Source of the DNA: Hydrolagus affinis
Taxonomy: Eukaryota
Length of the DNA stretch: 64,000 bases
Assembly (NCBI GenBank): GCA_012026655.1
Contig: JAAILG010000804.1
Span: 1 to 64,000 of the forward strand
Reading direction: 5' to 3'
Shown here: positions 158 through 64,000 of the stretch, one piece after another
Layout: each line of letters starts with the position of its first letter
How positions within the stretch are numbered: the first letter of the stretch is position 1
The notes under the pieces: model-generated
The model's input: only the letters and a program-made list of their open reading frames with translations
Told to the model about the DNA's origin: nothing
Databases searched by the model: none
Translations under genes and position numbers: made by a program

Positions 158-355
158 TTTGCTTACGGAGTTCCAGATTTAGCCCTGAAAGACATAGCTT
201 GCAGCCAGATGCTTTTGGATCGTTTCATCATTTTCTCGAATTGGCGAGGTCTGCACACTGTTCTGAATGGAATGTGTGTTCTGTCTCAACAACGGCTTCA
301 GAGAGTAGAGGACAAGTTTTACGACAATGTGGATTTCTTCAAACTTTTCAATATG
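158..355 (+). CDS. ABCA4: ABCA4 exon 6 (198 nt)
   Basis: cacag|TTT..ATG|gtagg; [24 protein letters not shown]. Confidence 0.93.
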
Positions 356-6300: not shown

Positions 6301-9300
6301 GGCAGGGTAGGGGGGAGGGGAGGCAGAGAGGTGGGAAGGTGGCAGAAGGACGATCGAAAAGGAGGATCTTGAGACCGGCCTTGAAGGAGGCAAGAGGGGA
6401 AGTGAGGTAAAGGGACTGTGGAATAGAGTTCCAAAGTGTGGGGGCAGAGAGGCTGAAAGCCAGACCACTGGTGGTAAGGCGGGTCGGGCGGGAGATATGG
6501 ATCAGACTGAAGCCCGCTGAACGGAGTGGACGAGCAGGTTGGTAGGTAGACAACATTCAGTTGTGCCTTATTTTAGTCCCTTATGACATTGTCCCTTATT
6601 TGTTAAATTAAATAATTAAGTTGCTGAAATAGACAAAAATGTCTGGATATTTATATTCATTCCTTCAGTGTTTCATCTCTGTAGTTGTTTGATTGCTTGT
6701 TAGTCTTTGTTCATTGCACATCATCATTTTTTAAATGACATTTTCTGTATAATTGCTGGGTAAGAATGGGTCAGGTATGATATTGTGTGATATTTCTGAT
6801 GGATCAAATGGGTTTGATGGGATGGACCAATATTATTGACAGTTGGCAGAAATCGCTGGGAACAACCAGCAGGTCAGGCAGCATCTATGGAGCAAGGAAA
6901 AGTGAGTCAACGTTTTGGGTCCACGACCCTTCGTCAGAATAGTTTTAGTTTTTGTTTCAGATTGTCAGCATCTGCAGTACTGTACTTTGCGTTTTATTGA
7001 CAGTTGGTATTGGAGTGACAGACTATTTTTGACAAATGCATTTCTCAATTCAATAATTCTGTATTCTTTCTTACAGGACTCATTAAAAAACCCCACTGTG
7101 GCATTTTACCTCAACCTTCAGCTGGAGGATATGGCATTGACCACCAGCGACATCATTAACTTCTTGTTCAATGGTCCCTCAGCTAAACGACCAGAAGAAG
7201 AGCCAAATTTCGACTGGCGAAATGTGTTTAATATGACAGACCAGATTGTAACTCTGTTTAATAATTACATGGAGGTAAGAACTTTCAATGACAACAGAGT
7301 TATGTTCCAAGCGTGAGTTTATTTTATGTTTTGTAGAGTCCTCTTGGTCCTACTCATAGTCCAAACAGGTTGTGCGACTAAAGGACTGGCATAGGATTTA
7401 AGATGTGCATAAATATTCAATACCTTTTACCTCAATAGGATTAGCATTAAATAACTATGCTTTGGTTAATACGAGATGAAGTATAGTCAGACTTTCAACA
7501 TACTCTGAATTGAAAGCAGTTTGGGATACAGTATTTTGTTGAAATGCATCTGTTAACAATATAACAAGGTGAAAATTGTGACTTAGTATGTGATATTTAC
7601 CACTGATGATATTTATCAATTCCCCCCATAGCAATGAACCACAGCCTCAAATTATAAAAGAATATAGATGGGCTCTCCCTAGAAACTAATAATGGGCCTT
7701 AACATTAGTCCTGGGTTAACATTTATCAACATTTTACAACTAATTCTGGGCCTTGGAACAATCCTGTTCTAGGCTTTCTCCCTGGCAACTACCTTTTGCG
7801 TTCTACTGAGCACCCAATCAGTAGATAACAAGCAGAGCAACAGTTAAGGCATTTTGACACTATCGCAGCAATTTTGACATGAGAGAATAAAAGCATTAGC
7901 AGGTCTTTGAAGTAAAGCGATTCAGGTTTATTGTCTCCTAATAGCTCACTGACAAGATAAGATTAAAGTGGTTAGCTAACCCGCAATTTATAATGTTTGG
8001 CAAGTAAACCAAATGGCATCCATGTTATTCTGTGCTTTCATACAGATCTTGGCACCGTGATGCATTTGTTTCTCTGCAGTTAAACGTTTGGAAACTGACA
8101 CTGGAGGAACCTGTTCATTTGATAGTTTTCATTTGAAAGTCTAGTAAATAGGTGACTGGTCCAAATGGCGCAGAAAGTTTCGCTCCTTGTTAAGGGTGAT
8201 GTTTAAACCCGAACAATTCCAAGAGGTTTTAAGTGAGATTTTATTCTGCCTTGCTGTTTTTTTCAATTGTTTACTTGGCAGTAATCTAGTTTTACAAGCT
8301 AATGGCGACGTGTGTCTTTATGCCTACGTCCAGTGTCTGTTGTCTATTATTGGTATCTAAGGGATCCCATAAAGTTTATACCACTGCTTTATATTTTAAG
8401 CAAAGCTAGTACGTATTTCCTTTGAAACACAAGAAATTTTTTAGGAGTTATACTGACAACACAAATGAAAATGTTACTTTCTAACTTTGCTACTTACTAA
8501 TCTGCTCCTCTGAAGCCATAACCTTTGATTACTTGGCAGTGTTTGACTCTGGATAAATTTGAAGGTCTCGCAAACGAGGACCAGTTAACCCATCGGGCAC
8601 TTTATCTGCTGGAGGAAAACAAGTTTTGGGCTGGAATTGTGTTCGTGGATATGTATCCCTGGACAAACAAGCTACCGGCACATGTGAAGTATAAGATTCG
8701 AATGGATATTGACGCTGTTGAGCGAACAAATAAAATAAAAGACAGGTTGGTCTTACAAGTGGGAAGTATTAACAAAGACGTGGCCTTTGTGGAGCTCCTG
8801 TAGTTCAGTGGTTAGAGCACTCTCCTTAAAAGCGTGAGACCTGTGTTCAAATCCAGGCAGATCAGGATGAAACCTTGGGGAAGTTTCCTTACTCCATACG
8901 CCTAATAATGATCCATCCAAAAAAACATATACAATAATAAAAATTGGTCATTTCAATCCACGACTGTTTGTGGGACACCGCTGTGTGTAATTTGCTGCCG
9001 CATTTCGCCCGCAAATATAACATATACAGTAATTCATTTAACAGAATATTCTGTGAAGGGCTTTGAGATCTTTAGAAGACGTGAAAAGCCCTATATCGAA
9101 TGCAAGGATCATTATTATTAGTATTAGTATTATTCCTCCCAATGCATTAGCCTTAGTACTAGATGTGAAGGTCATGCAGAAACTGAGCCTCTTGCGAGGC
9201 TGCAGCATGTTGAATTATGTTGGTGGAGCGATAGCATGTGCAAACCTGGCTCTGTAGCTGAATTGGAGTTGGGATGGAGTGATGCATGTACAGTAACGTT

Positions 9301-15300: not shown

Positions 15301-18300
15301 TACGTAGGAAATAGAACACGAAGAAAATACTGTTGTTGGAGCGAATGAGCGAACGCATTCGTAAAAAAAAATTAGTGCAATGACTTTTCCAAAGGAAGAT
15401 TCTAAAAAGATTAAACGCTGGGACAAAATTAAGTAAAACAGCAAACTCCTGAAGGCAGTCAAGCAGAACTCCAGGAGTCTTGCACTGACCTCTTACTGAA
15501 CATTCAGAGAAGCCTTATCAGACTGCAGCTAGGCAGGTATTGAAGGTATTTGTGCTTAGCTCTTATTAATAAACTCTTTGGTCATGTGAACCAGTAGTTT
15601 TCCACCCATGGGATTCAACTTTATGCAACTAAACACTACAATGTGAGACAGGATGCAGCGGAAATAGAACATGTACGTGAGTGAGGCAGACAGACTGGTC
15701 AAAGGCAGATTTCAGACGACAATGAATTTGTTGGAAGGTTACACTCATTAATAATCTGGCATTTAGCAAGGCCTGGCCTTGTTACAATATTCATATCTTT
15801 CTTTCTAAATAACTATTGTTTTCATTCAAGTTCCTTCACAAACTCTTAACAAGTGAAGAATTTAAATAAATGTTAAATCTTTGGCACCGTCTGTTTGGAA
15901 TTCTCCTTTCATGAATAAGTCTGGAATGCACTGTTGAATTGCCACTATTTCTGCTATAATGGTACTTGTCTGCTGTTTACAGGCTGTTGATTTTCAGTAA
16001 ACTATGATGTTCAAAAGAACAAATGGTTTTGTTTTTGAATGAATCGTTGTATAGCAGAACATTACAGATTTTTCTAAGTGCAAATGTTGTTCATTCGATT
16101 TCCTCAATAGTTTTAATATGAACAGATATTTCCTGTTGATCGAAGGTGTGCTTTTTACAGTTTAAGTCTAATAATTCTACAATATTTTGAAAGCAATTAT
16201 TTTTGCTTGATATCATCTTGTTCTTGAGCATCGTTTGTTACAGGTAACATGTCTGACACATACTCTTACAATTCACCATGCAGTACAGTATATTCTGTGA
16301 AGCGCTTCATTTGTTACTGCTTCATTTCATTCCATCTTTCCCACGTCTTAGGTGAGTACGGAGTTCCAAGTCCGTGGTACTTTCCTCTGCAATCCTCTTT
16401 CTGGTTTGGTCCTGAAAAGCCACCAGTCGCCACAAAAGGTGCGTTCGTTTACAAATTCCTAAAACTTAGTGAACTGAGCAGACTAACCTCATGTCTGTCC
16501 CAGTGTATATTTGACAAATAGTCTGTATTTGGTAACCGTCCTCAACCTGTTTAGTATCCCTTAACAATTCTGTAGGCTATGTGGAGGGAATTTTTGAAGC
16601 TATGTTGCCGATGCGCATTAAATGCCAAGCGTAACGAACAATAAAATTACATTTATAGAGCGCCTTTCACGTTGGGAGGATGTCCCAAGGCGCTGAAACG
16701 TATTTTCTCCCGTTCAACTGAATAACGTGCCATTCTTTTCATTGATCTATCAAAAAAGAAGTCACAAAAGAAGTCAAGGAAACGGACAAAAAAGACGAAA
16801 AAGCAAAAGAAGAGGAGAAGGCAGACAAACCCGCAGATAAAGAGGGAAGCAAACCAGCAGAGAAAACAGCAGAGAAAACAGCAGAGAAACCTGCAGAGAA
16901 AACAGCAGAGAAACCAGCAGATAAAACAGCAGAGAAACCAGCAGAGAAACCAGCAGACAAAGCCACAGACAAATCTACAGACAAATCCAATGTCAAATTG
17001 GAGGAGAAGCCCGGAGAAAAATCAGGAAAAGAGACTGACGATCAGAAGAAAAAAGAAGAAATGGGAGAAGGCTTGAAGGTGTGTAAACGGAGCGAGAAGA
17101 AGGAGAAACCGAAACCATCGACTGCCACGAATCCAGGTGAATGATTTGTTGAGGGTCATATTGGAACTGTACTATTGCAAGTCACAGTTCTTGATGCATG
17201 TGATAGTTTTTTAAGCCCATGACATGACCGGCCGTTGTATGTCATTTGCAGTAATGGAAGCGATGGCAGGAAACCCTTTCTACGAGACAGAGCCCTCTGG
17301 TCTGACTCTTGGAGTATCTGTTCAGAACCTGGTGAAGGTCTTCCAAGAAGGGCAGAGGCCAGCTGTGGATAAACTGAACATTAACTTCTTCGAAGGGCAG
17401 ATCACTTCCTTCTTGGGGCATAATGGAGCTGGAAAAACCACTACAATGTAAGACTCGCAACTTTCATTGCGATGTAACAAATACCTCAGCGCCTAAAAAT
17501 AGGAACCAGCCTTTATATTAAGTTTGTTTCAAGAGGTTCTGATCTATATGTACAGTATATATATAATATACACACAGGCTATACTGTACTCAAATTGGAG
17601 AAGCACTTAATAATTCAGCTGCAAGTTTATAATGAGCTAAATATTAACAGTTGAACACTGAAAGTAAGCTCTCACATTTGACATAACCAAATGATACTGA
17701 AATAGACTTCATTCAGACTCCGACATCCATGTAGACACCTAGATTTTATTAATGAATAACAAACACAGTTCTCTGTCTCTTGTCTTGTACCTAACTTGCT
17801 TCCCCCGACATGATGTTAATCATTTCAGAGAACTACACAAACTCTGATAGGTCAGAAGGCAATATTTTGAGAAACACAAAATAATGAGCTTAAAATGTAT
17901 TATAATATCTCGAACCCTGTAAACATATACTTTAGGTGAAATTCTCTGGTTGATGCAGAATGTAGAATAATATCATCCAGAAATGTTTCTGTAAATGTTT
18001 GCTCAATTGTTAGTTTTTAATTGCCCCCGCACTTTAGATAATGTAATGTTATTTAATTAACACATATTTTGGAATTGTTCTGCTGTCAAAATAGGATTCT
18101 ACATTTAAGTTATTTATTAATCGACTGTAACGCAAACAAAAGTTGAAACCATGAATTGCTATTGCATGTGCTTAATTCATTGCTCTATCTTTACAATTCA
18201 ATAGGTCAATGCTGACTGGCTTATTCCCACCTACATCTGGTACTGCTTATATTAATGGGAAGGATATTCGCACAGAAATTGATGCAATTCGACAGAACAT

Positions 18301-33300: not shown

Positions 33301-36300
33301 AAGAGGACATGGGTTCAGAGATGTTTTTTTTACCCAGTGAGTAATTAATGACTGGAACAGGTTATCAACAAGGACGATGGACTCATTTGAAAAACAAATT
33401 TTATGCTATAAATATGGTGGGTGTTCTGAAACCATGAGATGAAATGAGATGAAGAGCATTCTTCATCCGTAGCTCTCTTAGTAATCTTGTGTCTCTATAA
33501 AAATGGTGTAATGAAAGGTTAGTGAGATCAGTCTTGCAGCATGAAGCTGCTGTATCCCAAAGTAGATGTTCAGTCAAACTCAGGCACTCATGATTTCAAT
33601 GGTGTTTCCAGCAGTTTGAATCTCTAATTATTAACCTTGACTATGAAACTGACCTGTGATGTGTTGGAACAGTTTGCTCTATTTAAAACACTGATGCAGA
33701 GATCTAATCTGTTCCAGGTGTGGTTCAACAATAAAGGTTGGCATGCCATGGTTTCATTCATGAATACTGCCAACAATGCTATTCTTCGAGCAAACCTACA
33801 ACCCAAGCTTGATCCAGAGGAGTACGGCATAACCATTATAAACCATCCGCTGAACCTCACTAAAGAACAGCTTTCAGAAGTCACTGTGTAAGTTACAACA
33901 ATAATAACTTGCAGTTATATAGTGCTCTTCACCCTGGATGGCATCTCAGAGAGTGTGAACTCAGAGAACTCAGAGTCACTTAGACCACAATAGCCACAAT
34001 TTATAAACACAAAGAGCCTTAATGTTAAAAAAAAATGTCGTTTAAAGTAATAATAATCCTTGCATTTGTTATAGCACTTTTCATGTCTTCTAAATGTCTC
34101 AAAGTAGTGTCCCAGAAAGGGGATTGATTGACCAATTTATTATTGTTTTACTTCTTGAGCGATTATTATCAGGTGTGTGGAGCAAGGAAACTTACCCAAG
34201 GTTTCGCCCTGGTTGGGAATTGAACCCAGGTCTCTCGCTTGCGAGGCGAGTGCTCTCACCACTGAGCTACAGGACTCCACAAATCTCTGGGACACAGCAG
34301 TCTGAGTGACAACTCTTGTGATTTTTCTGAGTCTGTAGCTCTGTCACATTCACTGCATTCTCCCTTTCCCTGAGCTTGTATATTACTGGTCCGTTGAACT
34401 TGTCTTTTTCAGACTCACTACTTCTGTGGATGCAGTGGTTGCAATCTGTGTTATCTTCGCCATGTCGTTTGTCCCGGCGAGTTTTGTGCTCTACCTTATT
34501 CAAGAGAGGGTTTCAAGCTCTAAGCACCTGCAGTTTATCAGTGGAATGAGCCCCACCACTTATTGGGTGGTCAACTTCATTTGGGATATGGTACGTCCCA
34601 ACCAGCACATCACCATCGAGATTGTAGGAGAATTAAACCCAAATAGCTGCTGTAGATGATGATAATAATAATACAGTAAACCTTGCGTTTAATATAGCAA
34701 TATTCACATCATCTAGACGTCTCAAAGAGCTTCAAAGAATATACTGTAAAGTGAATTGATTGTATATTTCTGGGTGAACTGCCTAATGTCCCACAAACAG
34801 TCGTGGATTGAGTGACAAAATTATTTTTGTGTTTTTTTTCTTGAGGGATTATTACCAGGCATGTGGAGTAAGGAAACTTGCCCAAGGTTTCACCCTGCCA
34901 GGGTTTGAACCCAGGTCTCTGGCTTGCAAGGCGAGTGTTCCAACAACTGAGCTACAAGACTACAAGGGCTCTGTACCTGTAGCATTGAATTTCAAACTTA
35001 GTTTGAAGAAGGTGGTTAGTTGTCCCTAACCGTCTCCTTCAAACCAATTGACTGAACCTGAAGGATTCTCTGTGAATGCACAGAACAGCAGCCTCGTGAT
35101 TGTACAAATCCCTTATGACTGTTATAATGATCCCGAGTGAATGTGTTCTGCCGGACTGTCCTAGCAATGCTACCATGTTGGAAGCCATTATTCCTTGCTC
35201 ATCGTAGAGATTGTCGGAAGTGTGGTGTGAATAAGGACTGTAGATATTCCATCGTTAATAATGAGATGCAGCATTTGGAGCATTGCTAACTGGTGACCGA
35301 CGCTTAAACTTGAATGTGTCTTTGTCTCTCAGTGCAACTATTCAGTGACCACATTCTTGGTGGTTCTAATCTTCATCGGTTTCAATAAGAAAGCTTACAC
35401 CTCGCTGACTAACTTGCCCGCTCTCATCACTTTGCTGTTGCTCTATGGGTAAGGCAGGGTTTCTGGACTTCGCACACTTTTCTGTTTCACAGATCTTCTT
35501 GTAGCTTTGATTTGCCACCTACATCAAAACACAAAAAGCGTTTAAAAACTCGTCTCTTTTCTTTCCTCCCCCAGATGGTCTGTAACTCCGATGATGTATC
35601 CCGCGTCCTTTGTGTTCAGTGTTCCCAGCACTGCGTATGTGGTCCTCTCCTGTATTAATCTATTCATTGGGATCAATGGCAGTGCAGCTACCTTTGTTCT
35701 CGAGCTGTTTGAAAATAACAGGGTAGGTTCTTTGGGGTTTTGTATGCGTTTACCAAGTCGATGCTAATTGTTTGGGGGAAAACGAATTGTCTCACCAGAA
35801 CCTGTGACTTCTGGTTACAAAATGACTGGACTAAAATGGCAACTGGCGTCCTATTCATATACTATCCTTTCAAATGCAATGATTGAGTCATTCAGATCAC
35901 AAATCCCTGACTGTCCAGCCACCTTTGGATGTCCTCCCGACGTGAAAGGCACAATACAAGTGTAATTGTGTATTGTATAACAGACCAGATTTGATCATGC
36001 AACTGTGAAGTTCAAAGGAGGGCAATTGATATCAGTGTGCGTGATATTATTCTCATGTTAAGCGCTCTGGGACGCTACCCAGTGTGGAGGGAGCAAGTTG
36101 TCATTGTTGTCTTTGTTGTTGTTGTCTTTGTTGTTGTGGTCTTAAGACTGGAAAGATCAGGGCTCCCACTCCTGGTTACTCTTTGTGGCACTGGTGGAAG
36201 GTTCAAATGTATTGACAATTGGTCAGTTTGGGGGTTTGGGCTCAGCTGATACAGCTCTCCCAACTTCCCAGTTCAATAGTCCACTCAATTGCCGTGCAGG

Positions 36301-47424: not shown

Positions 47425-47552
47425 TTATAGCAAGAAAGGAATGATCGGCATCCGCAGAGTTGGGTAATCCTTAAACTCCTTCAAGTAAGAGTAGTGCTTG
47501 CCTTTAGCCCAGACAGTCATCTGGATGAAACCCATCAGAGTAAACAAACCGA
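47425..47552 (-). CDS. TECR: TECR-like terminal coding exon (128 nt incl. TAA)
   Basis: [41 protein letters not shown]. Confidence 0.95.
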
Positions 47553-50500
47553 CTAAAAAAAAAAGTAAAGTGAAAAATTTTAAATGAAGAAATGCATCTC
47601 TAAACTTTGACTTGAACATTTTCACCAAATTACTGTCTTATATTGTACTACCTGGTAGGCACTGCGTCATTATGGTGAAACCAATCCAGGCTCCCACCTA
47701 TGGGATATGAAAACACACAACATTTACCACACTTGGACTCAAGGCTGATTAACTATAATAACTCAATCACAGTGCAACCAATGTACCAGTTATGAAGCTA
47801 TTTTCCTGGAAGTGCAAATTGCATTGCATATTGGATGAAACCACATGACTAACTTATTCCCTCCTTGTTTCAGATACATTAAATAGAGAATCATTGGCTA
47901 AAAAGTGAGAGGTTTATCATTGATGTATGTAATCAAGGAGGAAGGAATTTAGATGAAGACCTAAATATTATCATTACTTCTTTATTCCAGTAATAACGAA
48001 TAACTAACTCCACTAACCGAACATGCCATGCCCTACCCGAGTCTGGGCAGGCAACCACTCTCCAAACTTTTCTCAATGTTTCTCTGGCAATAGGCTTCAG
48101 GCGTTGTATAAGACTAACCCGAGTTGCCTTTCCTTCTTATGCAAATCACCGAGCTATCTCATGAGCTAAGAACAAAGCATATATAATCTATATAAGCATA
48201 TATGAGGTACAACAGCCAACTGGACTGTAACTTAGTTGATCGAGCACTGGATTGGAACCTCGAAGGTTGAGAATACAAATCTCAGTCAGTCCATGCGTTT
48301 GAGGACACGAACATTAGTGCCATGTTTCCTGACCTGAAGCTGAACCTGAACAAGCTCCAAGAAGACATCCATAGTAACTGGCTCTCTGAGAGATATAGAC
48401 ATAACAACAACAACAACAACAAACTGCTATTGTATAGCACCTTTTAGTTGTATAGTGTCTTTCAAGTCAGGAGGATATCCTAAGGTGCTCCGACCTGCAA
48501 TCTAAATACCCCCAACATTTAGGGCAGTCCTAGCTGGTGTAGTACCATGCTGGACATATGCAATATGTTCCATTTATAGATTATAAATAATAGCTCTGGG
48601 CAAATAATCATACCTCGTATGTGTAATTGGGGCACGACACTAAGAAGAAGAGCCAGGTGAAGGGATTCTTGGTCGGGTGAGGAATCTTGCGGCTTTTGGA
48701 TCCTGGAAAGCGGTAAGAAACACACTGCTGACCAGTACAGATCATTTCCAAATTGAGTTATTTATTGATTAGGTTGTAGAGCTTACCTTCTGAGCGCAGG
48801 TTCCTTAGTGCTATATGGATTGAGAAATTCCCAACTTCACATACCTGGAACAATTCAATGATTATAATAAATGTACTGTCTCCTTTATCTACTGTTTATC
48901 GACAACTGTTTACTCTTATGTACCGGCCACACAGTCTTACTGCCTCATAGTTTTGCTTTTAATTTTAATCATCGAATGCAGTTAGTTGGCTATTGCAGAT
49001 GCAAACCGAGTAAAAGCAAATCTATAGAAATACATAGGATTTCATGATCTGGCAAATCGAGATTGTGAGAGCAGTTTTACCTTTATTATTTAAGGCAAGG
49101 ACTCCGTCCAATCTAAAGTTCAGAAGTGGCAGTTGATTAATTTATTTTGCTATTAGTAACCTTGTCAGTACAATTACTGTATTCAATTGCTGACAACAAC
49201 TCATCCGTAGATTGTGAAAACCAATCATTGCACGTCCATTCATTCAATTATTATCACTTTAAGTTTTAAAATTTCACATGCTCCGAATGTAAGCAGTGGC
49301 AATGTTTGAGTTGAGTATTTTAACGTGACATACCAGGAAAGTATATAGCGCTAGATCAACTTGTTTGTCTCCATATACTGTAAAAAAAATGATGAACAGT
49401 GTAACGCAGAGACTTTTAGCAGAGTTTCAGCACCACTAAAATGCAACTGTTTACAAATCCCATTACTTACAAGGTGTTGTGTACAGTGGGTGGTTGATGT
49501 AAAAAGCCAGCCAGGCTGTGAAACCCCAGTAATAGAAACAGTTCTGTGTAGACATAAGTCAATATATTTAGATCAATAATATACACTATGTTTATTGAAC
49601 AGTCGCCGCTCTTCTATTCTATTGTTATCACTGATTTAATCATTGTCTGTCAGTCCAGCAAATGTAACATTTGACATTGCAGAAATAAATATAGCTCTGC
49701 AGAAGGAATCCGTTGATAAGATTTTAAAATTACATGAACTTGTTGTTAACTAGAGTAAACAGTAAGAGCATATGACCAACTGGTCTTGTTTCCTACACAT
49801 TTCAACCTTGGTTTACGGCCCCCCAATGTATTTTGCCTCTACCTAGATTCTCAACAGAATGGAAAAAACAACTTTTCAATTACATATATGCATTACGTAA
49901 GTTCTCCAGCTGCAGATTTACCCTTTCAGTCACCTTGTCACCTCTAAGTAAGAAAGTGTAAAAGTGTTTATTCTAGATTTTGTAACCAGTGTTTTGTTCC
50001 AGATAGTTCCCTGCCTCAGGTATAATGTCCAGCTTGACAAAAACACCAAACTGTATATGTCAGTAATTCACATACTCCCAAGTCCTTCCAAATTCCCACG
50101 TAAAAGCATGTTTTACCAGCTCTGTGATATTTACCTTAACAGTGTTACGGAGGGGCATTGTGCCATGAGAGAACCGATGCACGAATAATGTCTCGATCAA
50201 TCTTTTGACGTAGTGGAAAGAATGACAAATGCATGACATGCTGAGGGGAAAAAAGCACACAGAAACAGGCTGCAGGATTACCAAAAGAAAAGTCAGAAAG
50301 TGACAGCTAGCAAATCAATGCGTTGACCAATGCAATCAAGTAAACAGCTTATTTATCGGGTGCCTCTTGTCCCCATTCCTTTCATTTGCTGAGGACATAG
50401 AATGCTACAGGTTTCACATCAAAATCAGCAATGCCTTACACTAGCTAAGTATCTTAAAGTCTAACAATCAGAATTGAAGTTAATCGGTAGAACATGGTGT

Positions 50501-53500
50501 GAAGTGGATTTTATTGATAAAATTACATTACAGTTTGATTCCCATATTTACCAAGTGGCATAAAATTCCCGCCCACCAAAATCGGAAAGGAGAGTGATTA
50601 GACTCCTGTTTAGTTTTCTCTTGTACATCAGGATCATTTCATTAAATGTGAAACATGTGAAATGACCTGTACGTCATTTTCTACCTGAATGTGAAACAGC
50701 AGAAATAAACCCGTGAGAGACCTGTGAGTTAAATTCATCCTGAAGCTAAAATGATCGGGATAGATCAGGATTTTGAAAGTAAATTAATGGAAGCGAGTAT
50801 GTTGGTTACTCACCATACTCAGGTACCCGCCTAAAACCTGTTACTTACTGCACCACAGTGTGCTCACTGGAAGTAAATTCATCCTCTTCATCGTAGATAA
50901 AAGGCAGGCGGAAGTAGAATAACAGATAGATAAAGAGTGGGCCAGCATACTCCGTAAGAAAGACCTATGAGCAAAGCACAATGAACAAACAAGTGTATGG
51001 ACAGCAAAGTTTAATTTAGGAAAATGCTAAATATATATGTACTGTGCTTGAATACAATTTGAGGCAATGTTTATTTAGAAACAATAGGCCCCAAATTCTA
51101 CTCAATTGTGCAGAATTGTTTGAAAATTCTTACACTCAATCTTATTTTGGCAGCCATTTTCTTCCATAGTTCTGAAAAGATCCAGCTTTTAAAAAATGAA
51201 TTTAAGAATTGGCTGTAGTTCTGTGCAATCTAACCTTTAATGAAAATATTTACAAAATGTTGTTAGAGGGTGAGACTAGGTGGAATTCCAGCCCTACTTT
51301 TAAACATCTTCCACCCTACCCCTTAATCACACTCCTTAAAGAGGTGACTCAAACACTCTTGCAATGATATCCCTCTTTAAACTGTATTTTCTGACTTTTT
51401 CAAACAAAGTCTGTTTAAGAGAAAGGTGGGTGGTGGGGAGATATATTTCTCGTTTTCTGACTGCCGAAAGAGAAAGGATACTGTACTGTACTTCAGCAGA
51501 GAGTTGGAGCTTGTTGGTACCAGATCAGATCCAATATACATTATTACGATAAGGTTACTGGAGTCATTGTGAATAATCAACATTCTCATTATTGAGCAAA
51601 AGAATTGTCTCTTTCTGTTCGGTGTCACAGGATTTTTAACGTCAATCTAGACAAACAAACGTGAATTTAACGGGTCATCCAAAAGAAGGCATCTTTGACA
51701 ATATAACGCCCCCCCCATTAGAAAGTTTTGAGGTTTGTCTATATCAGGCTGAGTCTCAGGGTTACAGGGTATCAGGTACCGATGTGTTGCATCGCTGAGT
51801 GAATCAGTACTCACTGTAGTCCAGCCTACTTGGGAACCCAAATCTCTGAAGTAGAAGGTAGCGGTGGTGCCCACTGGAAGACTCTGCAAGATTTCGTCAT
51901 CTCTTAGACTTTTGCCCTCTGTGGATTGAATCAATATCGGAAAAGCGATTTATTTTTAGTCACTTTTAAACGGTATTATTCTTTTCTATTAACATCACTG
52001 CTGTGAATTCAACAACAAAAAACAATGTGCACCCAGACTGCCTTTATCACAAGCTGTAAAAAATATATTTTTTAAGTTTTGAGACGTTCTCAAAGCTCAG
52101 TGAGACGTCTCAAAGACGTGATAAAGTGCTATATCTAATGCAAGGATTACTATTATTAGTACATATTGTTAAATACCGATTGTCTATTGACAAGCTGAGG
52201 GCAAACTGGATAATAGATTGTCTTGACCTTTGGCAAAACGGTACAAGCAGCAATAGCAACAACAACCTTCAATTACACAACTGCACCTTTCACATTTCAA
52301 AGCACTTTACAGAGATGAAGTGGCTCTTTGCTAGAGCTGGTAAGCATGCCCTTGAACTACACACTGGGAAATCAACAGTGAAAGGCTGCGATCCCAATTT
52401 ACAATCACTTTCCAATGTGGTTTTGCACCTTAAATTGAGCATTGGGTCAGGCAGACTTTCTGCTGTTGTGAAGTGCGCTGTACTATATACAATGTATATG
52501 ATCCTACAAAGTGCTCAGTTGATTTGGGCTGTAACTCAATCTGTATTCCTTTCAGTTCACTGATCAGACCCTCCCTGTCACATCCACTTGACATCAAACG
52601 TACTCGAGCGAAAGTTTTTTTTTAGCAGTAAACATTCCTGAAATTCCAGGGCTGTGGAGGTAAATACACAGTGTTTGTTGTTTGTCAGTCATCGTACACC
52701 ATGTTTAATCCTTTCTCTTTCTCTCTGAGAATGGATTGAAAATCAAAGGGTTCACCCAGTTGAGCGGAGTGACCTTGGTACCACGGAATGACAGGGTCAT
52801 GTTGAGGGGAAGCTATGTGCAGCTCACATTAAAGCGGCTAAATTAATCCTCTGGCACAGTGCAAGGCACAACTGTCCCAGTGGCGGCTTCCAGTTACATC
52901 CCACCACTGCTGCACTGCGTTCTCTGAATGTTCCAAGAAACTCAACTAAATGACAATATTACTTACAGTGTCAGTTATTCCTCCTCATCCCTCCCTCCCT
53001 CCCTCCTATTTGGCCCCCTCTCCACCCCCACAAACAAAAACACCCACACCCTCCGTAGATCTCCCTACTCAGCTCAAGCTCCAAGGCAGCTGTATGAAGC
53101 ACTTTGAGATGTCCTCCCAACATGAAACCCGCTATATAAATGTAAATTGGTTTTGATTGAACTGCTAAGATACACTCACCCAGACTAATAAAAGAACACA
53201 ATAGCAACTGGCATTTATAGCACCTCCCCCACCCCTCCCCCACATATGTCATATAGATTGGTCCAAAACACTGGGACATCGTGTCAACTTGAAAGACGTT
53301 ATACAAACATAATTCTGTTGGATTGGACACTCAGCAAACAGCAGGAGAATTGCTTGAGCTTTTCTGAACATGTTATTGATTTTTTAGACGGCATATTTCG
53401 AAGAATTCCTCCACGCAGCTTTAAATTTGTTCTCAGAATTTGGACAAGTTTAAGAACGGTCCCAAGTTTACACCTCGTCTAAAATATGTTGGGAAAAGCA

Positions 53501-56500
53501 TGAATCTAGAGACCCAGGTGGAATTCTCCCACCTCCCCAACCCCCACTCACACAGCTCTTGTTTCTGACTATATATAACACAGCTGTGAGAACAGGAGAT
53601 TTAAAGTAGCCCATAAATCGGCTCCATTGGAAATTCCTCTTTGATTCCACTTTCCTGTCACTGTGAGTTATGAGAAGCAAAGTTAGCAGCAGCCAAAACA
53701 CATGGGGGTGACTTCCAGACCTAACTCCTCCCCTCCTGCCTCAGAACTCTCTCTCTTCTGTTGTACAGTACTTTCAAAGAAAATTTGCTTTGCTTGTGGG
53801 TAGCCTTGAAGGGAAGCAAAGCAAGAGAGGGTTTGAGGCAGGCAGGTAGGCTGACAGAAGGTGCAATTCTTAGCTGCTACTTTCTCTAGTTTCACCCAGA
53901 AGGTGAAACTAACCCATGTTAGAATTGGGCCATTTTCAAGGGAAGTGCACAGAACAACAATGCTTTGTCTTTTTCACCCGCAAAACATACAGTCGGTCGA
54001 CTTTATAGTCTCGAAGATGTGATAAGACGTCGTATCAAATGCAAGGATTGTTACTCTCGTGATTACGTTTTTTTTCTTGCCCAAGTCTCTGCTTTTCTCA
54101 AGGAAGAGTTTCTTTCAGTTACTTCTGGGGCAAGATTCTACAGATGCCTGAGTCTGAGTGGGGCTTATAAAGTGATGGGGCAGGAGTGACAGAAATCCAT
54201 GCAGCGCTGGACTAATCGGTGTAAGTCACGCTACCCGAGCAGCTGCCCTAGGAGGAGTGGAACAGGCCAACGGGATCAATGGTTTGTGGAAATAGAGAAT
54301 GAAGGGATTAGATGTTCTGAACATAGAAAATTCAGAAAGCCAAAGGTAAATCCACAGAATGTATCCATGGCCAGAGGATGGCACTTCTGGCATTTCTGCA
54401 GAATGACAGCGAACACATTTTCATCACCATCTTAAAATCAATGAAGTACAGAGTACAACTCGTTTTCACTTTTCCTCTTTAGTGCCCCTGAATGGTGAGA
54501 AATGTTGCAGCTTCAAACAGGTTACAAGACGGTATAGATGTGTTTGTGGTGTCTTTTTAAATCTGTCTACTTAATACTTTAAAAAAGACGTTCTGTGATT
54601 GGCTGCCACGTTTGCACCCAGAAAATATACAGTCATTTCACTTTACAGTGTAAAATCAGGAGTCGCTAGGAACACTCAGCAGATCAGGCAGCATCTATAG
54701 AGAGAGGAAAGTTTCAGGTCAAGGACCTTCCATCAGAAAGCGACATCGATCTGAAACATTGACTCACTTTCCTCGCTCCACAGATGCTGCCAGTCTATAA
54801 TATAATAATAATACAATAATCTTTTAATTTGATATAGCGCTTTTCACGTCTTCTAGACATCTCAAAGTGCTTCACAGAATATACTGTAAAGTGAATTGAC
54901 TGTATATTTGCGGGAGAAACTCGGCAGCCAATTGCACACAGCAGTGTCCCACAAACAGTCGTGGATTGAAATGACCAATTTTATTATTGTGCTTTTTTTG
55001 TTGGAGGGATTATGTTTTGGAAGCACGCTGTACCTAGTGGCAGTGATACATTTGACTGTAGAAATATAAGACGTGCTTGGAGAATTCCCCCTGATGTGAA
55101 AGGCGTCATATAAGTTGCCTTGTATAAAAGGGTAGGGGGAACAGATAGGAGAGTGGACAAAACAGAAAGACAGCAAAGATAAAATGAATCATCAGACGGC
55201 TTCCTTCCATGTGGCAAATTTCTATTGTTCTACAGCAGACACACAATCACCCGTTCTCTTACTTTTGTTCGGGGGAAGATTGTGGGAAAAAAAATTATTC
55301 GTCCAAATTCGGCGCCGGTTAATCCAAGCATTTTGGTTTATGAGTTGCCTGCAGAGGCAAACTTGGAGCCGCACACAGTCTCGCAATATAAAGGCAGCAT
55401 GAGTTGAACAAGAATTTCACACTTAGCATGTGAAATCTTCACTTAATTGTTCTGACATTGGACCACTGATGTTAGCTCTGTAATAAACACTATCATGTTG
55501 TTGCCTGCTCACGAGAGGATCTAGTTAACTGGATCCAATCAAGCCCACATTGTAAGTGATTGTAAAGGAATTAAATATAATGCGGTACTTACTTGGATCT
55601 AACCTGATGGACTGTCTTGCTGGATACCACTGAGGGTCTGAAAGAGAATTGAATGAACGTGCTTTAGCTGGCTATTCCAGAGACATAATGATAGAAACAA
55701 TAATCCTTCCATTTGGGGTAACAGCTTATCATGTCGTTGAGACATGTCAAAGTGTCAAATCCCCTTGCAAGCCTCATTCCTTCATATATCTGGCTATACG
55801 ACTTCCCCCTTAAAACCCACAATGGATACTGTCTCTACTAGTTTAAATAATAATCTATGCTTTTTGAGGAGACATTGTAATAATAACAGCAACAATAATT
55901 TAATAATAATAATCCTTGCATTTGATATAGCGCTTTTCATGTCTTCTATACGTCTCAAAGCGCTTCACCGATTATTCTGTAAAATCAATTGACTGTGTAC
56001 TTGTGGGCGAAGCATGGCAGTCAATTGCGCACAGCAGTGTCCCACAAACACTCGTGGATTGAGATGACCAATTTATTTTTGTTTTTTATTTGAGGGATCG
56101 TTATCAAGCATGTGGAATAAGGAAACTTGCCCAGGGTTTCTCCCTGCCTGGAATCGAACCCAGGTCTTTCGCTTGCAAGGTGAGTGCTCTAACCACTGTG
56201 CGACAGGACTCCCAAATGGCAGTGCACTGCAGATCCTAGCAACTCTATGAATGGGGAAAACATTTTTTCCCAAGCTCTCCTTCCCCTCTTCTCATGACTA
56301 TCTTACACCTATCTCTAGTGTCACTGCCTCCCCTGCTTGTAAAATTAATTCCCTTGTCTTTGTCATACAGGTACCACGTTTGCTCTGCTCATCGAGATGC
56401 CAGCATATTCATTGTTGCATTTAAATCTCAGGCAGCTGGTGGTGGAATGAATGAACTCATCACTTCCAAGAAAATTGGTGACATTTGATTTACAATCTGC

Positions 56501-57925
56501 TAAACTGAACAAGGCTTTCTTCTAGTGCTAGTGCAATAAGGAAAGCAAAATGTCAGTACTAAAAACAAAGTGCGATGTTCCAGGAACCAGTAGTTGAGGC
56601 TTAACGTTAAAGATGTAAGAGACAAAACCCTTCTGGATTCCTGCAGCATTAGCCTCGCACATGATAGAATCTGAGTTTGATTCTCAGGCAAGGTGAAACC
56701 TTGGGCAAGTTTCCTCACTCCACACACCTTTGTTTAGCAGTTAGAAGCAACCCGGTTGTTAGTCGATTGGTGGAAGATCTCTTTTCAAGGGGGTAATAAT
56801 CCTTCCCACCCTCCCACCCCCCAAAAAAATGTGTTCACTCAATCCACGACTGTTTGTGGGGCACTGTTTCTGTGCACAATTGGCTGCCGCATTTCACCCA
56901 CAAAATAATCAGTCAATCCACTTCACGGTAAATTCTGTGAAGCGCTTTGAGACGTCTCAATGACATGATGAGGCGCTATATCAAATGCAACGGTTAATGT
57001 CATTATTAATTAGCTTTACGAGAGAGAATAGTTGAATTAAATACCCCTCAAAACAAGGAGACTAGTTCAGATTCATCAGCTCTACAAAATACAGTGATTA
57101 CATTTTACAATAATTCCCGAGAAGTGCTTTGAGATGGCCTCTTGATACGAAAGGCACTGTACCAAATACTGTCTAAGGATTATGAAACCTATCCTCAAAT
57201 GCCTTTACTTACATGTCTTTTGGAACATAGATTTGATTTCTCCAATTGTGGCATTTGGTTCCACCTGAATAAGATAGAAGTACATCAAAAGAACATCAAT
57301 AACACTGCATTCTGAAATTTCTAAGCACTGTATCTGTGAAGACTTCTAACACACTGTGTAACATTGTCGATGCAGGTTTCCTTCACGAATAATAACGATC
57401 ATTCCTGGTTGCCTGGGTCGTATCAATGCAAAGACAACAAACCCCCAACATATTCAGCTCGCAAGACCTGGGTAACCACAGCAAAGTAGGAAATGTCCCA
57501 TATCTAGGATAGTTACATTGTTACAAAATTTATTCCGCATTAATTAAATCACTTCCTTCAATTAAACACTTTTTAAAAAATCGATTGACTAAAAATGGAT
57601 GAAAATCTGATAATTAACCTACTGAAGAATTGCCTGAATAACCGAGGAACTCCCCATCCATAAAAAAAAACAACTTGATAAAAACATCTTCAATTAAAAA
57701 AAAATACCTCGGGCATATTTCGAGTAACATTTAGTTTCTCACCTTATCGAGGAAACACAGCTGCTCCTTGGTCTTGACATCAAGAATTTCCACCTCAAAG
57801 AAAACAAAGGATTTTGCCTTTTTAGTTACAGTTTCTTTTGGCTGCTGAACCATGTGATTAATCACCGCTTTCTTTTTTGCGTTAGCAAATATATTCGCCA
57901 AGTCTATCCCTTGTCCGTTTGCCAT
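47425..57925 (-). CDS. TECR: Very-long-chain enoyl-CoA reductase, TECR family (probably the tecrl2-type paralogue); 12 coding exons, 347 aa
   Basis: Exons splice GT-AG into a 1044-nt ORF: [84 protein letters not shown]. Exon sizes 52/45/104/116/106/73/44/58/89/46/128 match human TECR exons 3-13. Confidence 0.93.
47652..47697 (-). CDS. TECR: TECR-like coding exon 11 (46 nt)
   Basis: [15 protein letters not shown]. Confidence 0.94.
48614..48702 (-). CDS. TECR: TECR-like coding exon 10 (89 nt)
   Basis: [29 protein letters not shown]. Confidence 0.95.
48787..48844 (-). CDS. TECR: TECR-like coding exon 9 (58 nt)
   Basis: [19 protein letters not shown]. Confidence 0.93.
49334..49377 (-). CDS. 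TECR: TECR-like coding exon 8 (44 nt)
   Basis: [14 protein letters not shown]. Confidence 0.9.
49471..49543 (-). CDS. TECR: TECR-like coding exon 7 (73 nt)
   Basis: [24 protein letters not shown]. Confidence 0.94.
50135..50240 (-). CDS. TECR: TECR-like coding exon 6 (106 nt)
   Basis: [35 protein letters not shown]. Confidence 0.95.
50849..50964 (-). CDS. TECR: TECR-like coding exon 5 (116 nt)
   Basis: [34 protein letters not shown]. Confidence 0.95.
51815..51918 (-). CDS. TECR: TECR-like coding exon 4 (104 nt)
   Basis: [34 protein letters not shown]. Confidence 0.94.
54655..54792. mobile_element. Same repeat, fold-back copy with two decayed hammerhead remnants
   Basis: Inverted arms ggcagcatctatagagagaggaaag / ctttcctcgctccacagatgctgcc; - strand CTGATGGaaggtccttgacctGAAAc. 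Confidence 0.55.
54800..55012 (-). mobile_element. tRNA/L2-tail SINE, 3' two-thirds
   Basis: Core and tail match. Confidence 0.87.
55593..55637 (-). CDS. TECR: TECR-like coding exon 3 (45 nt)
   Basis: [15 protein letters not shown]; ag/gt bounded. Confidence 0.93.
55902..56212 (-). mobile_element. tRNA/L2-tail SINE, full length
   Basis: Head with B box GGTTCGATTCC, core and tail. Confidence 0.9.
56635..57008 (+). mobile_element. tRNA/L2-tail SINE, long subfamily
   Basis: Diverged head, extra segment, core and tail. Confidence 0.83.
57213..57264 (-). CDS. TECR: TECR-like coding exon 2 (52 nt)
   Basis: [17 protein letters not shown]; ag/gt bounded. Confidence 0.92.
57743..57925 (-). CDS. 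TECR: TECR-like first coding exon
   Basis: Kozak-like aaaataATGG with in-frame TAG upstream; [33 protein letters not shown]|gtgag. Confidence 0.8.
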
Positions 57926-59957: not shown

Positions 59958-60279
59958 AATAATAATAATAATCCTTCCATTTGATATAGCTTTTCACGTC
60001 TTCTGGACATCTCAAAGCGTTTCCAGAATATAGTGTAAAGTGAATTGACTGTGTATATATATGTGAGAGAAATGCAGCAGCCAATTGATCTCAACAGTGT
60101 CCCACAAACAGTCATGGATGAAATGACCAATTTATTATTGTATTGTTTTGGTCTTTTTGAGGGATTATTATTAGGTATGTGGTGTAAGGAAACTTGCCCA
60201 AGGTTTCGCCCTGCCTGGAATTGAACCCAGATCTCTCGCTTGTAAGGCGAGTGCTCTAACTACTGAGCAATTGGACTCC
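59958..60279 (-). mobile_element. tRNA/L2-tail SINE, full length
   Basis: Head, core and tail. Confidence 0.9.
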
Positions 60280-61119
60280 ATAATATACTGTATACAGTAC
60301 CGTTGTATACATGTAGCCTTACGAATGGGGAAGAAGACTTTTATAAATTAATTAATAAATAACTTCTCACTAAGTTCAAATAATTCCATCAAATTATTAT
60401 TAGTTAAAATAATTCCATTAAATTCCTGACAAGAGCACATTGAAGCAACACTGTCAAATAACTAACACCTTTCCAACAATTGTAACACAAGCTCCCTGAT
60501 AGATTGCACTGATAGATGGAAAAGGGCGGTAGCCTTACTTTAGGTGATAAACCATGAAAGTGCAGGCGTTACGTCAATGTTTGTAGCAGTGTAGTAACTG
60601 TGGCGAAACGTAAATATTCCTTTGTTAAATATTTTGTAAAAACTGAGTGTGAAAATAATAGTGAAGTAGTTCTCGCTTTAAATTTAATTTCCTGGCAGCA
60701 TGTGGAAGGAAGTTAGGCAAACATGCCCTCTGCTGGCACCTGTGATTGTTACTACAGCCTTAAATTGATGAGTGAAGTGAAGTACAGTACTGCATCCAGG
60801 AAGGGGACTCAAGGGCATCTAGTCTTACCTTGGAATAACTTTTTTTGATATTTAATACTAACACTTAATGGACTGGTTAGGTCACTGGCATTTGGAGTTA
60901 TTTCGCAATCCTCCTACGCAAGGGTTCTGTATTTGTTGCTGCACTGCAGAGGGCTGCCATCGTACAACCCGCTCATTCCTAATCAGAACCAGCACTCTTC
61001 CAGTGAACATAACTAGCCCTATCTATGTCTGACTGTATGTAATACTGTCATAGATATGCACCTCATATTGCAAAGTATTCATTTATCAATCGTAAAGTGA
61101 CTGTTGCAGTGCTGGCAGC

Positions 61120-61365
61120 GCGAAACCTTGGTCACGTTTCCTTACTCCACACACCTAATAATAATCCCTCAAGAAGAAAAAAAATAATAAATTAATCACT
61201 TCAATCCACGACTGTTTTGGGTCACTGCTGTATGCAATTGGCTGCCGCATTTCACCCACAAATATAGTTAATTCACTTTATGGTACAGTATACTCTGGGA
61301 AGCGATTTGAGACATTTAGAAGATGTAAAAAGCGCTGTATCAAATGCAAGGATTATTATTATTAT
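61120..61365 (+). mobile_element. tRNA/L2-tail SINE, 5'-truncated
   Basis: gcgaaaccttgg..core..tail. Confidence 0.87.
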
Positions 61366-61565
61366 TCTTGTGCTGCCAGTGCAACAAATTGATTTTGAGT
61401 TGTCAATGTTCCGCTCTTTAAAAAAAAACACTTTAAAAACTTATGAAAGATGAATTAGAAGTGTGATGAACTTTCGTGATGTGCTTCCTATTTTTGAGCA
61501 TATCCTTCTCAACAGGTTATGCTTGTTACAGAGAAACCAAGGCGCAGGCTGGATAAACCCTAACA

Positions 61566-61854
61566 CAGTGGTTCCCAACCTCGTGTTCCGATCCAAATCA
61601 GGGTTGCGGGGGTCCTCAGTAAGGTCGCGAAGGGTCACCACAGAAGAAAAAAAATTCTCATTTTAATGCTGAAAAGTGCCCGAGGCGACACCGCCAACCA
61701 ATTTGTATGAAAGACCGTCCTAGCGAGTTGCGCTGAGTCCACAAAAGAGAAGGAGATATCGTCTTGGCTGAGCTTCGCTTCAGTCGCGCAGTCACCCCCC
61801 CCTAAGGGTCGGTGGCCAATTTAGGGTCACAGCACAAAAAAGGTTAGGAACCAC
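61566..61854. mobile_element. hAT-Charlie-type MITE
   Basis: TIRs CAGTGGTTCCCAACCT ... AGGTTAGGAACCAC (terminal TG missing); 8-bp TSD CCCTAACA/CCCTAACG with central TA; no ORF. Confidence 0.75.
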
Positions 61855-61959
61855 CCCTAACGAGAGGGACAGGAGAGATCAGCCAGGATTCCTGTTGCCA
61901 ATTGCTATTATTTGTTAGAAAGTGAATAGCAAAGATATCAGCTGAGGGCAGGCCCAGGC

Positions 61960-62020
61960 TTTCTCCTCAGATGCTGCCTGACCAGCTGAGTGTTCCCAGC
62001 GATTTCTGTTTTTGTTGCAG
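61960..62020 (+). mobile_element. Fragment of the same repeat (no ribozyme core)
   Basis: cagatgctgcctgaccagctgagtgttcccagcgatttctgtttttg. Confidence 0.55.
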
Positions 62021-62693
62021 CATTGGGCTTGCGTGGGATCCCCTCCATTGGATACTAGCTTGCTGATGCTCGCTGTCTTGGGTCAACTCATTAAAAATGG
62101 CCACTTGGCTCTAATAAATCCCTCTCGTTATTCCAATGTTATTTGGACAGACATCGCAAACTGTCTTCTGGCAAAACCAAAGGTTACATCCCTGGCGCTC
62201 TAAACCAGTTGCCTGTTTGATGAGATTCCTATACGACATTTCATCTTCTGGTTTTGGTAACTTTTTTTTTCCCTCCAAAATTGAGCATTTCTTGTTGTCC
62301 ATCAACACATCAGCCTCTGTTCTCTTCTCCTTTCGAGACGCGCCCTCTGGCTCCTATCCAAACCCCTGTACATACAGTGCTCTCCTGAACCCTAGCTGCA
62401 GGCATTTGTTTTGTTTAATTCTTCCTGTGATTGTATCCGTCTTTGTTGACTCCGAGATCATTTCATTTATGTGTGCCAGAGGCCATGATTCCTTCTGAGG
62501 TGCCCAGCTGTTGGGACGAACCCATAACTGCTTGTGAGGCAGATAGTTGTCTCCTGTTCACAAGGTGAGATTCATTTGATATCCCACCCACCAACCCAGC
62601 TGAGGACTGGCCCAAGCACCTAACATATGTATCGCACACTGCATGTAAATGTATACAAATCAATAAAATATAATCTAATCTACAAACATTTAA

Positions 62694-62734
62694 TGAGTTC
62701 TGACGAAGGGTCGTGGACCCGAAACGTTGACTCA
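62694..62734 (+). ncRNA. Minimal type-I hammerhead ribozyme motif (Penelope-like-element type)
   Basis: TGAGTT-CTGACGA-A-GGGTC-GTG-GACCC-GAAA-CG-TT-GACTCA: conserved CUGANGA and GAAA boxes, 5-bp helix II, 6-bp helix I, palindromic AACGUU in place of helix III. Confidence 0.65.
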
Positions 62735-62826
62735 ACTTTTCCTTTCGGCAAAGATACTGCCTGACCTGCTGAGTGTTCCCAGCCATTTCTGTTTGGGTTT
62801 CAGCGTCTGCAGTATTTTGCCTTTTT
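62694..62826 (+). mobile_element. Hammerhead-bearing short interspersed repeat (Penelope-derived, non-autonomous), one arm
   Basis: Shares sequence with 6847-6995, 54655-54792 and 61960-62020 (cagatgctgcctgacctgctgagtgttcccagc..ttctgttt). Confidence 0.6.
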
Positions 62827-63051
62827 CTAATCCAATCTACCTTTGGCCATTAAACTACTGATTCACCGTATTCAACTACAGTACTAAAGCAACAACTCTT
62901 AGAGATTTAACATCTTAAACCCACTTTGTCTGCCTATCTCAGCAACCTCTGTAAATCACATGACTGTGATGAAAAATGGCCTCAATCTTCTCAAAAGGTT
63001 TGGCAGCGGCTTTGAAATATTCTAGCTTCCCGCAAAGCAGGAAAAGGATAA

Positions 63052-63364
63052 TATTAATAATCCTTGCATTTCATATAGCACTTTTCACATCTCCTAGACA
63101 CCTCAAAGCGCTTCGCAGAATAGACCGTAAAGCGAATTGACTGTATATTTGTGGGAGGAACGCGGCAGCCAATTGCGTTACAGCAGTGTCCTGCAAACAG
63201 TTGTGGATTGAAGTGACCAATTTATCATGGAGGGTTTTTTCCAAGGGATTATTTATGAGGCGTGTGGAGTGAGGAAACTTGCCCAAGGTTTCGCCCTGCC
63301 GGGAATCCAACACAGGTCTCTTGCTTGTAAGGCGAGTGCACTAACCATTGAGCTACAGGACTCC
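63052..63364 (-). mobile_element. tRNA/L2-tail SINE, full length
   Basis: Head, core and tail. Confidence 0.9.
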
Positions 63365-64000
63365 ATGGATGAAAGGATGCAAGGGTGCAAAACAACAGAG
63401 GAGAGTACACATTCAGCAGCTGAGTAAACAGGATTAACAAAAAGAGCAATAATTCATTGCTCAAAACGCTCCTTACTCTACTGTATTTTTGCTGAAGAGA
63501 GCTTTTCTAAAGCAATTTCCCGTTAACTACACATTTCTACCATAAAAGTGGAATTTGCTCGAAAATTACTAGCTCTCCCTAAAAGCAAGGCCTTTATCTA
63601 GTTGGTTGGTAGCATTGTTTTCATTTAGTTGGTGGTCTTATATCTTGACTTTGCCTTTGACAGACAGTGTTTACTTTCTCACACTTCATGTGAAGAGTGG
63701 TTTACAGCACCTGTGAGAGTAACATTTGGGTTTAAATGGAAGCACAATGTATTAAAAGCAAAATGAGCAGCACAAAAAAAAACGGAATCATTGAGCTCAA
63801 CAATTATAACACGAGGTTTGAGAGATAAACCTTTAAAACACACTAAAGCTGCAGACTTCTGCAAGTGGCACTACGTGGCGCTCTGTTGAGTTTACGGAGA
63901 CATGTTTGCTGTGTGGTGGGAATGGTAAATATTTTTCTCTGCGTTCTCCAAGCACTAGCAAGTCTTCCAGTTGAAAAATTGCGGTATGCAAGTCACACGA

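Follow-up and report, generated by a model that had tools for sequence, protein, structure and literature searches.

The 41 nucleotides at 62694-62734 on the forward strand of the window (the whole 64-kb stretch of DNA that was analysed) are a real and complete minimal type-I hammerhead motif, beyond what chance would produce. This motif forms the head of a repeat of ~130 nt (62696-62827), and we consider it fairly probable (roughly 0.65) that the repeat remains from the insertion of a 5′-truncated Penelope-like retrotransposon (PLE), as its 3′ terminal repeat (pLTR); as a lone copy it is predicted to be inert. Judged by its sequence, the motif is a PLE minimal hammerhead (min-HHR), a class known since 2014 and expected in fishes; the repeat extends that class by one holocephalan family and leaves the general picture unchanged. 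The features on which this description is based are collected in Table 1.

Table 1. Positions of the hammerhead, the repeat that carries it and neighbouring features in the window.
Feature	Position	Strand	Remarks
Left target-site duplication (probable)	62671..62683	+	13 bp, one mismatch relative to the right copy
5′ piece between left duplication and family-shared start	62684..62695	+	12 nt; origin unexplained
Helix I, 5′ strand	62694..62699	+	62696-62699 shared by the family
CUGACGA box (C3-A9) and extra unpaired A between A9 and G10.1	62700..62707	+	Box 62700-62706, extra base A62707; from the sequence and the consensus in PMC4209133
Helix II, 5 bp, with 3-nt loop	62708..62720	+	Strands 62708-62712/62716-62720; pair probabilities 0.98-1.0
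GAAA box (G12-A15.1), palindromic minimal helix III AACGUU and GUU triplet	62721..62728	+	Box 62721-62724, palindrome 62723-62728; from the sequence
Helix I, 3′ strand	62729..62734	+	From the sequence and predicted fold; one G-U pair
Non-coding tail of the repeat	62735..62827	+	
Right target-site duplication (probable)	62828..62840	+	Abuts the 3′ end of the family
Second copy, inside the ABCA4-like gene	6847..6993	-	Inverted 3′-end piece, hammerhead, tail
Third copy, in a TECR-like intron, sense to the gene	54652..54791	-	Inverted piece, broken hammerhead, tail
Fourth copy	61955..62021	+	Tail only, without hammerhead
TECR-like (very-long-chain enoyl-CoA reductase-like) coding exons	47428..57925	-	tblastn; ATG at 57925

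Architecture of the motif

The letters assigned to a hammerhead by the sequence-only reading were found exactly as it had given them, and both invariant boxes (each intact), the 5-bp helix II, the palindrome and the GUU triplet occupy the positions it had claimed. An extra unpaired base between A9 and 10.1, a trait typical of PLE min-HHRs, is present as A62707 (offset 1 in the descriptor), helix II is opened by the pair G10.1-C11.1 (G62708-C62720), and from the sequence the cut is predicted at GUU, after 62728. The proposed 6-bp helix I held only in part: six pairs can form at this copy, but only four of the six lie inside the part shared by the family. Because family similarity starts at 62696-62698, where the loose ends of contigs pile up, the outer two pairs use letters outside it, supplied by the last two letters of the 12-nt 5′ piece. 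The topology is thus type I with a short helix I, of 6 bp here and 4 bp within the family-shared part. The numbering of hammerhead positions and the role of G12 follow the hammerhead literature and general knowledge of this ribozyme.

A min-HHR descriptor that we built for this purpose and scanned over both strands of the 64 kb matched once, at the motif itself. Among 500 dinucleotide shuffles, three had at least one match when helix I was set to at least 3 bp and helix II to at least 4 bp, and one did when these values were at least 4 and 5 bp. A chance resemblance to a hammerhead would be in keeping with the covariance-model search that the sequence-only reading had proposed, since Rfam returned no hammerhead family for the whole 64-kb window or for a 201-nt stretch at E≤10, and with a fold z-score of only −2.0, 7 of 200 shuffles being equally stable. 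However, shuffled sequences give a match in just 1-3 of 500 cases, the extra A, the G10.1-C11.1 pair and the palindrome, all of them outside the boxes, also agree with the consensus, and the motif is the head of a high-copy family. We therefore assign a negligible probability to chance, which the multi-copy family and the shuffle counts rule out.

A dispersed repeat family and its edges

Of 16 listed sequencing runs, four, from two related species (organisms A and B), were aligned to 62400-63030 at 80% likeness. Contigs matching the repeat numbered 8,508 in organism A and 9,011 in organism B, nearly all of them within about 62690-62830, and the depth over the core was ~19,000-24,000 times that of the flank, a rough ratio that gives no true copy number; from it we estimate a family of roughly 20,000 copies. 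At the locus itself, 3000 random pairs of window segments with the geometry of the 13-bp flanking repeats yielded 6 matches of this quality, and from the flanking repeats the inserted segment is probably 62684-62827. The copy is solo and not tandem, and no same-strand partner hammerhead was found in the 64-kb window, of which only 1.3 kb lies downstream. In its first six letters the 12-nt piece agrees with a part of the consensus that other copies show in their upstream loose ends. One contig of organism A joins the unique flank to the repeat as far as 62722 (10 differing letters in 323), which places the insertion before the split from that species; the contigs of organism B stop short of the insertion junctions.

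Three further family loci lie in the window. The second copy is bounded by a perfect 14-bp duplication (6994-7007 and 6833-6846), and the G12 of its hammerhead has been changed to A; this copy shows a PLE-type inversion in clean form. In the third, A9 is changed, the cleavage site is lost, and helix II is opened by A-U instead of G-C, the one compensatory-type change seen among the window copies, next to a CpG. The best matches for a target duplication at the 54.7-kb and 61.96-kb copies were only 8 and 6 nt long. The tail-only copy appears to be nested in another repeat-like stretch (61860-62110), of which no second copy was found in the window. The hammerhead is intact in one of the three window copies that bear it; in all three the sense part starts at most a few bases away from the CUGA box, and two carry inverted 5′ pieces, the 62694 copy being the one without.

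The 5′ edge of the family bears on a different reading, namely that the repeat is a short, protein-free retroelement of ~130 nt, dispersed and monomeric, whose RNA would begin at the hammerhead and would be copied in trans by the reverse transcriptase (RT) and endonuclease of a PLE. We regard this possibility as rather unlikely, though second in rank to a truncated PLE. The edge at 62696-62698 is sharp, and upstream loose ends agree poorly (0.35-0.58) compared with the continuation behind 62803 (0.63-0.78). Ten of the 13 listed joints are to the opposite strand, eight of these ten starting at 62696-62702; complete short insertions with 13-14-bp duplications are found at two of the four window loci, and non-autonomous PLE derivatives and dispersed monomers have been described (bioRxiv 10.64898/2026.07.22.740005; PMC8557442). 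However, the sharpness is partly built in, since the aligned stretch has nothing in common with the family upstream of 62696, so that joints further upstream are invisible. In addition, the loose ends before 62696 have a common ending in all four runs (agreement 0.37-0.58), and therefore some copies continue into a common upstream sequence. No promoter was identified, a bacterial promoter scan being inapplicable to a vertebrate, and solo motifs are taken in PMC4209133 as probably truncated PLEs.

A more specific proposal, which we consider less likely still, is that the hammerhead itself sets the 5′ boundary of a dispersed, protein-free chimaera retroelement of ~20,000 copies: the monomer would be shut as a rod, reverse transcription would end or turn there, and cleavage would occur only when the motif is paired with a second copy. 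If true, PLEs would have a SINE-like parasite headed by a hammerhead, in which the formation of PLE inversions could be studied in a natural setting. The sequence-only reading had also favoured a protein-free mobile element; the repeat is explained at least equally well as what a protein-coding PLE leaves after 5′ truncation.

Differences from the family were tabulated as depth-weighted counts (40 of 105 rows listed), which fall short of a proper covariation test. In two DNA runs, C>T changes were frequent at CpG positions, reaching 38% and 37% at 62712, 11% and 9% at 62720, and 10% and 10% at 62725, and G>A in loop II reached 31% and 29%. The listed changes at A6, U16.1, 62710 and 62729 remained below 0.5%, several tail positions varied by 7-50% among copies, and G12A was seen in the loose-end consensus lines of runs X9 and X13. 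This pattern fits a core that would be kept constant in the replicating element and would decay at CpG after insertion. In run X13, about one quarter of the first-mate-plus reads over 62703-62729 have several changes in common, A6>U among them, pointing to what may be one well-expressed, decayed copy in organism B.

The 62694 copy equals the family majority throughout its hammerhead, while its tail differs from that majority by 8 listed substitutions in 93 nt, one extra base and a loss of ~8 nt. An intact hammerhead beside 8 tail changes would have a probability of about 0.03 if changes were uniform, a figure weakened by the fact that the copy was picked for its intactness. The disparity, together with the extension of helix I to 6 bp and the presence of the insertion at the same site in organism A, could be read as selection on this copy for a role in cis, either cleaving or regulating a TECR-like transcript that is antisense or upstream. 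We find this improbable, given that intactness was the selection criterion and is seen in one of three window copies, that the motif is opposite in sense to the gene, that a rod fold is predicted for it, and that RNA reads over the flanks reach a depth of 0 in one run and 3 at most in the other, both from a related species whose contigs do not cover the insertion junctions.

Predicted fold, RNA reads and gene neighbourhood

Helices I and II form in the predicted fold, in which G5-A6-C7-G8 pairs with C15.2-G16.2-U16.1-U17 with a probability of 0.87-0.99; the open core accounts for 0.5-0.7% of the ensemble in four sequence contexts. The calculated energy of the double hammerhead was −23.5 kcal/mol, compared with −30.6 for two monomer rods and −37.3 for the best dimer, these being nearest-neighbour energies that leave out Mg2+, tertiary contacts and chaperones or other proteins. 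The lone copy is thus predicted to be inert, with its core mispaired as an inactive rod. In the published assays, a single min-HHR did not cleave and dimers showed low cleavage (PMC4209133), and one of the nine dimers tested in a 2026 preprint was cleaved (bioRxiv 10.64898/2026.07.22.740005).

RNA reads came from a single sample of organism B, a related species, sequenced in two single-cell polyA runs. The reads matching the repeat numbered 4,489 and 3,662, with both strands in similar numbers, and 86-90% of them run on into other sequence. The unique flanks had no reads in one run and a depth of at most 3 in the other. No pile of read starts or ends was observed in the two polyA runs, whose reads stem from other copies and cannot show cleavage. 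These data show passive transcription of many copies.

The motif lies upstream of and antisense to the TECR-like gene, as had been claimed, at 4.8 kb from its ATG and in the opposite sense. One exon of this gene (51.8-51.9 kb) has its nearest match in a Callorhinchus milii protein annotated as 'very-long-chain enoyl-CoA reductase-like' (92%), which makes a holocephalan the likely host. The motif could sit in a 5′ intron of the gene, whose transcription start is unmapped, and its position gives no sign of a role for the gene. An ABCA4-like gene occupies the plus strand to about 43.7 kb; within it, 16799-17014 is an array of 12-nt units in an open plus-strand frame (16746-17144) rich in K, E, A, P and T, and this array may be a coding repeat. 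The window also holds 13 tRNA-like matches (E≤10), for example at 4535-4599, 34205-34275, 60206-60277 and 63291-63362; with the common body of ~100-200 nt ending in (ATT)n, they point to an abundant tRNA-derived SINE.

Relation to Penelope-like elements and retrozymes

The min-HHR was defined in the pLTRs of metazoan PLEs by Cervera and de la Pena (2014; PMC4209133), whose consensus includes the extra base, the G10.1-C11.1 pair and the palindrome, and who found, in coelacanth and Xenopus, copies by the thousand, most of them solo. All sequence features of that consensus are found at 62694-62734. The claim that a PLE-type minimal type-I hammerhead is carried here by a mobile repeat is borne out by this fit, the probable target duplication, the thousands of copies and the inverted 5′ pieces. 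PLEs are described in PMC8557442 as showing 5′ truncation and inverted 5′ copies, and the latter trait is present at the family level (the 6.9-kb and 54.7-kb copies and the 10 opposite-strand joints).

Under the truncated-PLE reading, the course of events would be as follows. The motif contains the core, the helices, the palindrome and the GUU triplet, and the unit exists as thousands of scattered copies, with a near-perfect 13-bp direct repeat flanking this one. By inference from the PLE literature, two motifs in the RNA of the parent element would form a double hammerhead by pairing their ACGU palindromes; it would cut after GUU and so process the transposon RNA. Target-primed reverse transcription would start at the end of the tail and copy back through an uncleaved hammerhead; it would stop or turn near the 5′ edge of the hammerhead, giving solo copies and copies with an inverted 5′ piece. 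The lone RNA of the 62694 locus is expected to fold into the inactive rod described above, and inserted copies would then decay, mostly at CpG, as the run data partly show.

Some observations speak against a truncated PLE. The edge at the CUGA box is sharper than random truncation suggests, the majority-identical hammerhead stands beside a substituted tail, and neither a protein remnant in the window nor a PLE ORF linked to the family was found. Searches for RT or GIY-YIG remnants in the window were negative (best E 0.11 in tblastn with 31 PLE proteins and 0.15 with profiles), and the missing RT and GIY-YIG ORF at the locus is expected of a truncated copy. No PLE ORF linked to the chimaera family emerged from collection or protein searches (JGI metagenomes, GTDB, IMG/VR), and no proteins running into the repeat were found through its translation, with 43-aa queries that make this a weak search.

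The strict motif pattern had no matches in the JGI metagenomes, and a relaxed pattern matched five loci (L001-L005), none of the chimaera family. Two of them, L001 and L002, look like bacterial coding DNA and were rejected. At L003:120-145 (minus strand) there is a min-HHR-like motif with the same helix II and core as the 62694 motif and an imperfect helix I; ~165 nt separate it from the stop codon of a preceding GIY-YIG ORF (309-1148, minus strand) whose relatives carry RT. By analogy only, this may be a PLE end and a parallel for the 62694 repeat from another organism. L004:909-940 and L005:941-972 (plus strand) represent one hammerhead-like site ending in GUC, on AT-rich metagenome contigs, and no RT- or endonuclease-like ORF was seen nearby by eye. 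GTDB had no motif match, a 19-mer giving 38 matches, all in prokaryote records and taken as chance, and IMG/VR had none. Our literature search found no paper joining Penelope-like, Callorhinchus and hammerhead ribozyme; the main text of PMC12952989 contains no mention of Penelope or ribozyme, and PMC6155905 was discarded, the 'shark' in the text retrieved being the name of a ribozyme and not an organism.

Should the sharp 5′ edge hold throughout the genome, the finding would gain weight. The family combines an estimated ~20,000 copies with clear target duplications and with inversions whose joints lie at the hammerhead, and it would then make the PLE transposition cycle, still undefined according to PMC8557442, easier to work out from sequences alone.

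The repeat might also belong, as a single unit, to a tandem non-LTR retrozyme whose expression product is a circular RNA. Such elements are reported in the one chondrichthyan sampled in the 2026 preprint (bioRxiv 10.64898/2026.07.22.740005), which derives retrozymes from pLTRs and whose supplements may list the chimaera family. However, 60000-64000 holds no tandem array, just two tiny microsatellites, a single weak 'goes back' joint appears among those listed, and the motif is minimal and not a canonical type I. The probability of this reading is very low, and a tandem retrozyme at the locus is rejected, there being no array of hammerhead units. The repeat resembles the animal non-LTR retrozymes (PMC7229834; bioRxiv 10.64898/2026.07.22.740005) in being a protein-free unit with a type-I hammerhead, akin to PLE pLTRs, in that dispersed monomers exist, and in that their target duplications, when present, exceed 4 bp. 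In contrast, it is shorter than the ~170-400-nt RNAs of PMC7229834, lacks a canonical helix III and is not tandem.

With the insertions of endonuclease-bearing (EN+) PLEs described in PMC8557442, the family shares short 3′-end pieces, inverted 5′ pieces and a hammerhead in the terminal repeat; it differs in that the 62694 locus has neither an ORF nor a partial tandem. The likeness to the min-HHR of PMC4209133 extends to CUGANGA with the extra base, G10.1-C11.1, a short helix I, a NUH triplet, the palindrome as the sole helix III, and the thousands of mostly solo copies. By our own count of the 56 rows in the published alignment, none is from a cartilaginous fish, and 15 have the C-G-U-U ending of the 62694 motif; those most alike by eye are Xenopus tropicalis(2) and Crassostrea gigas.
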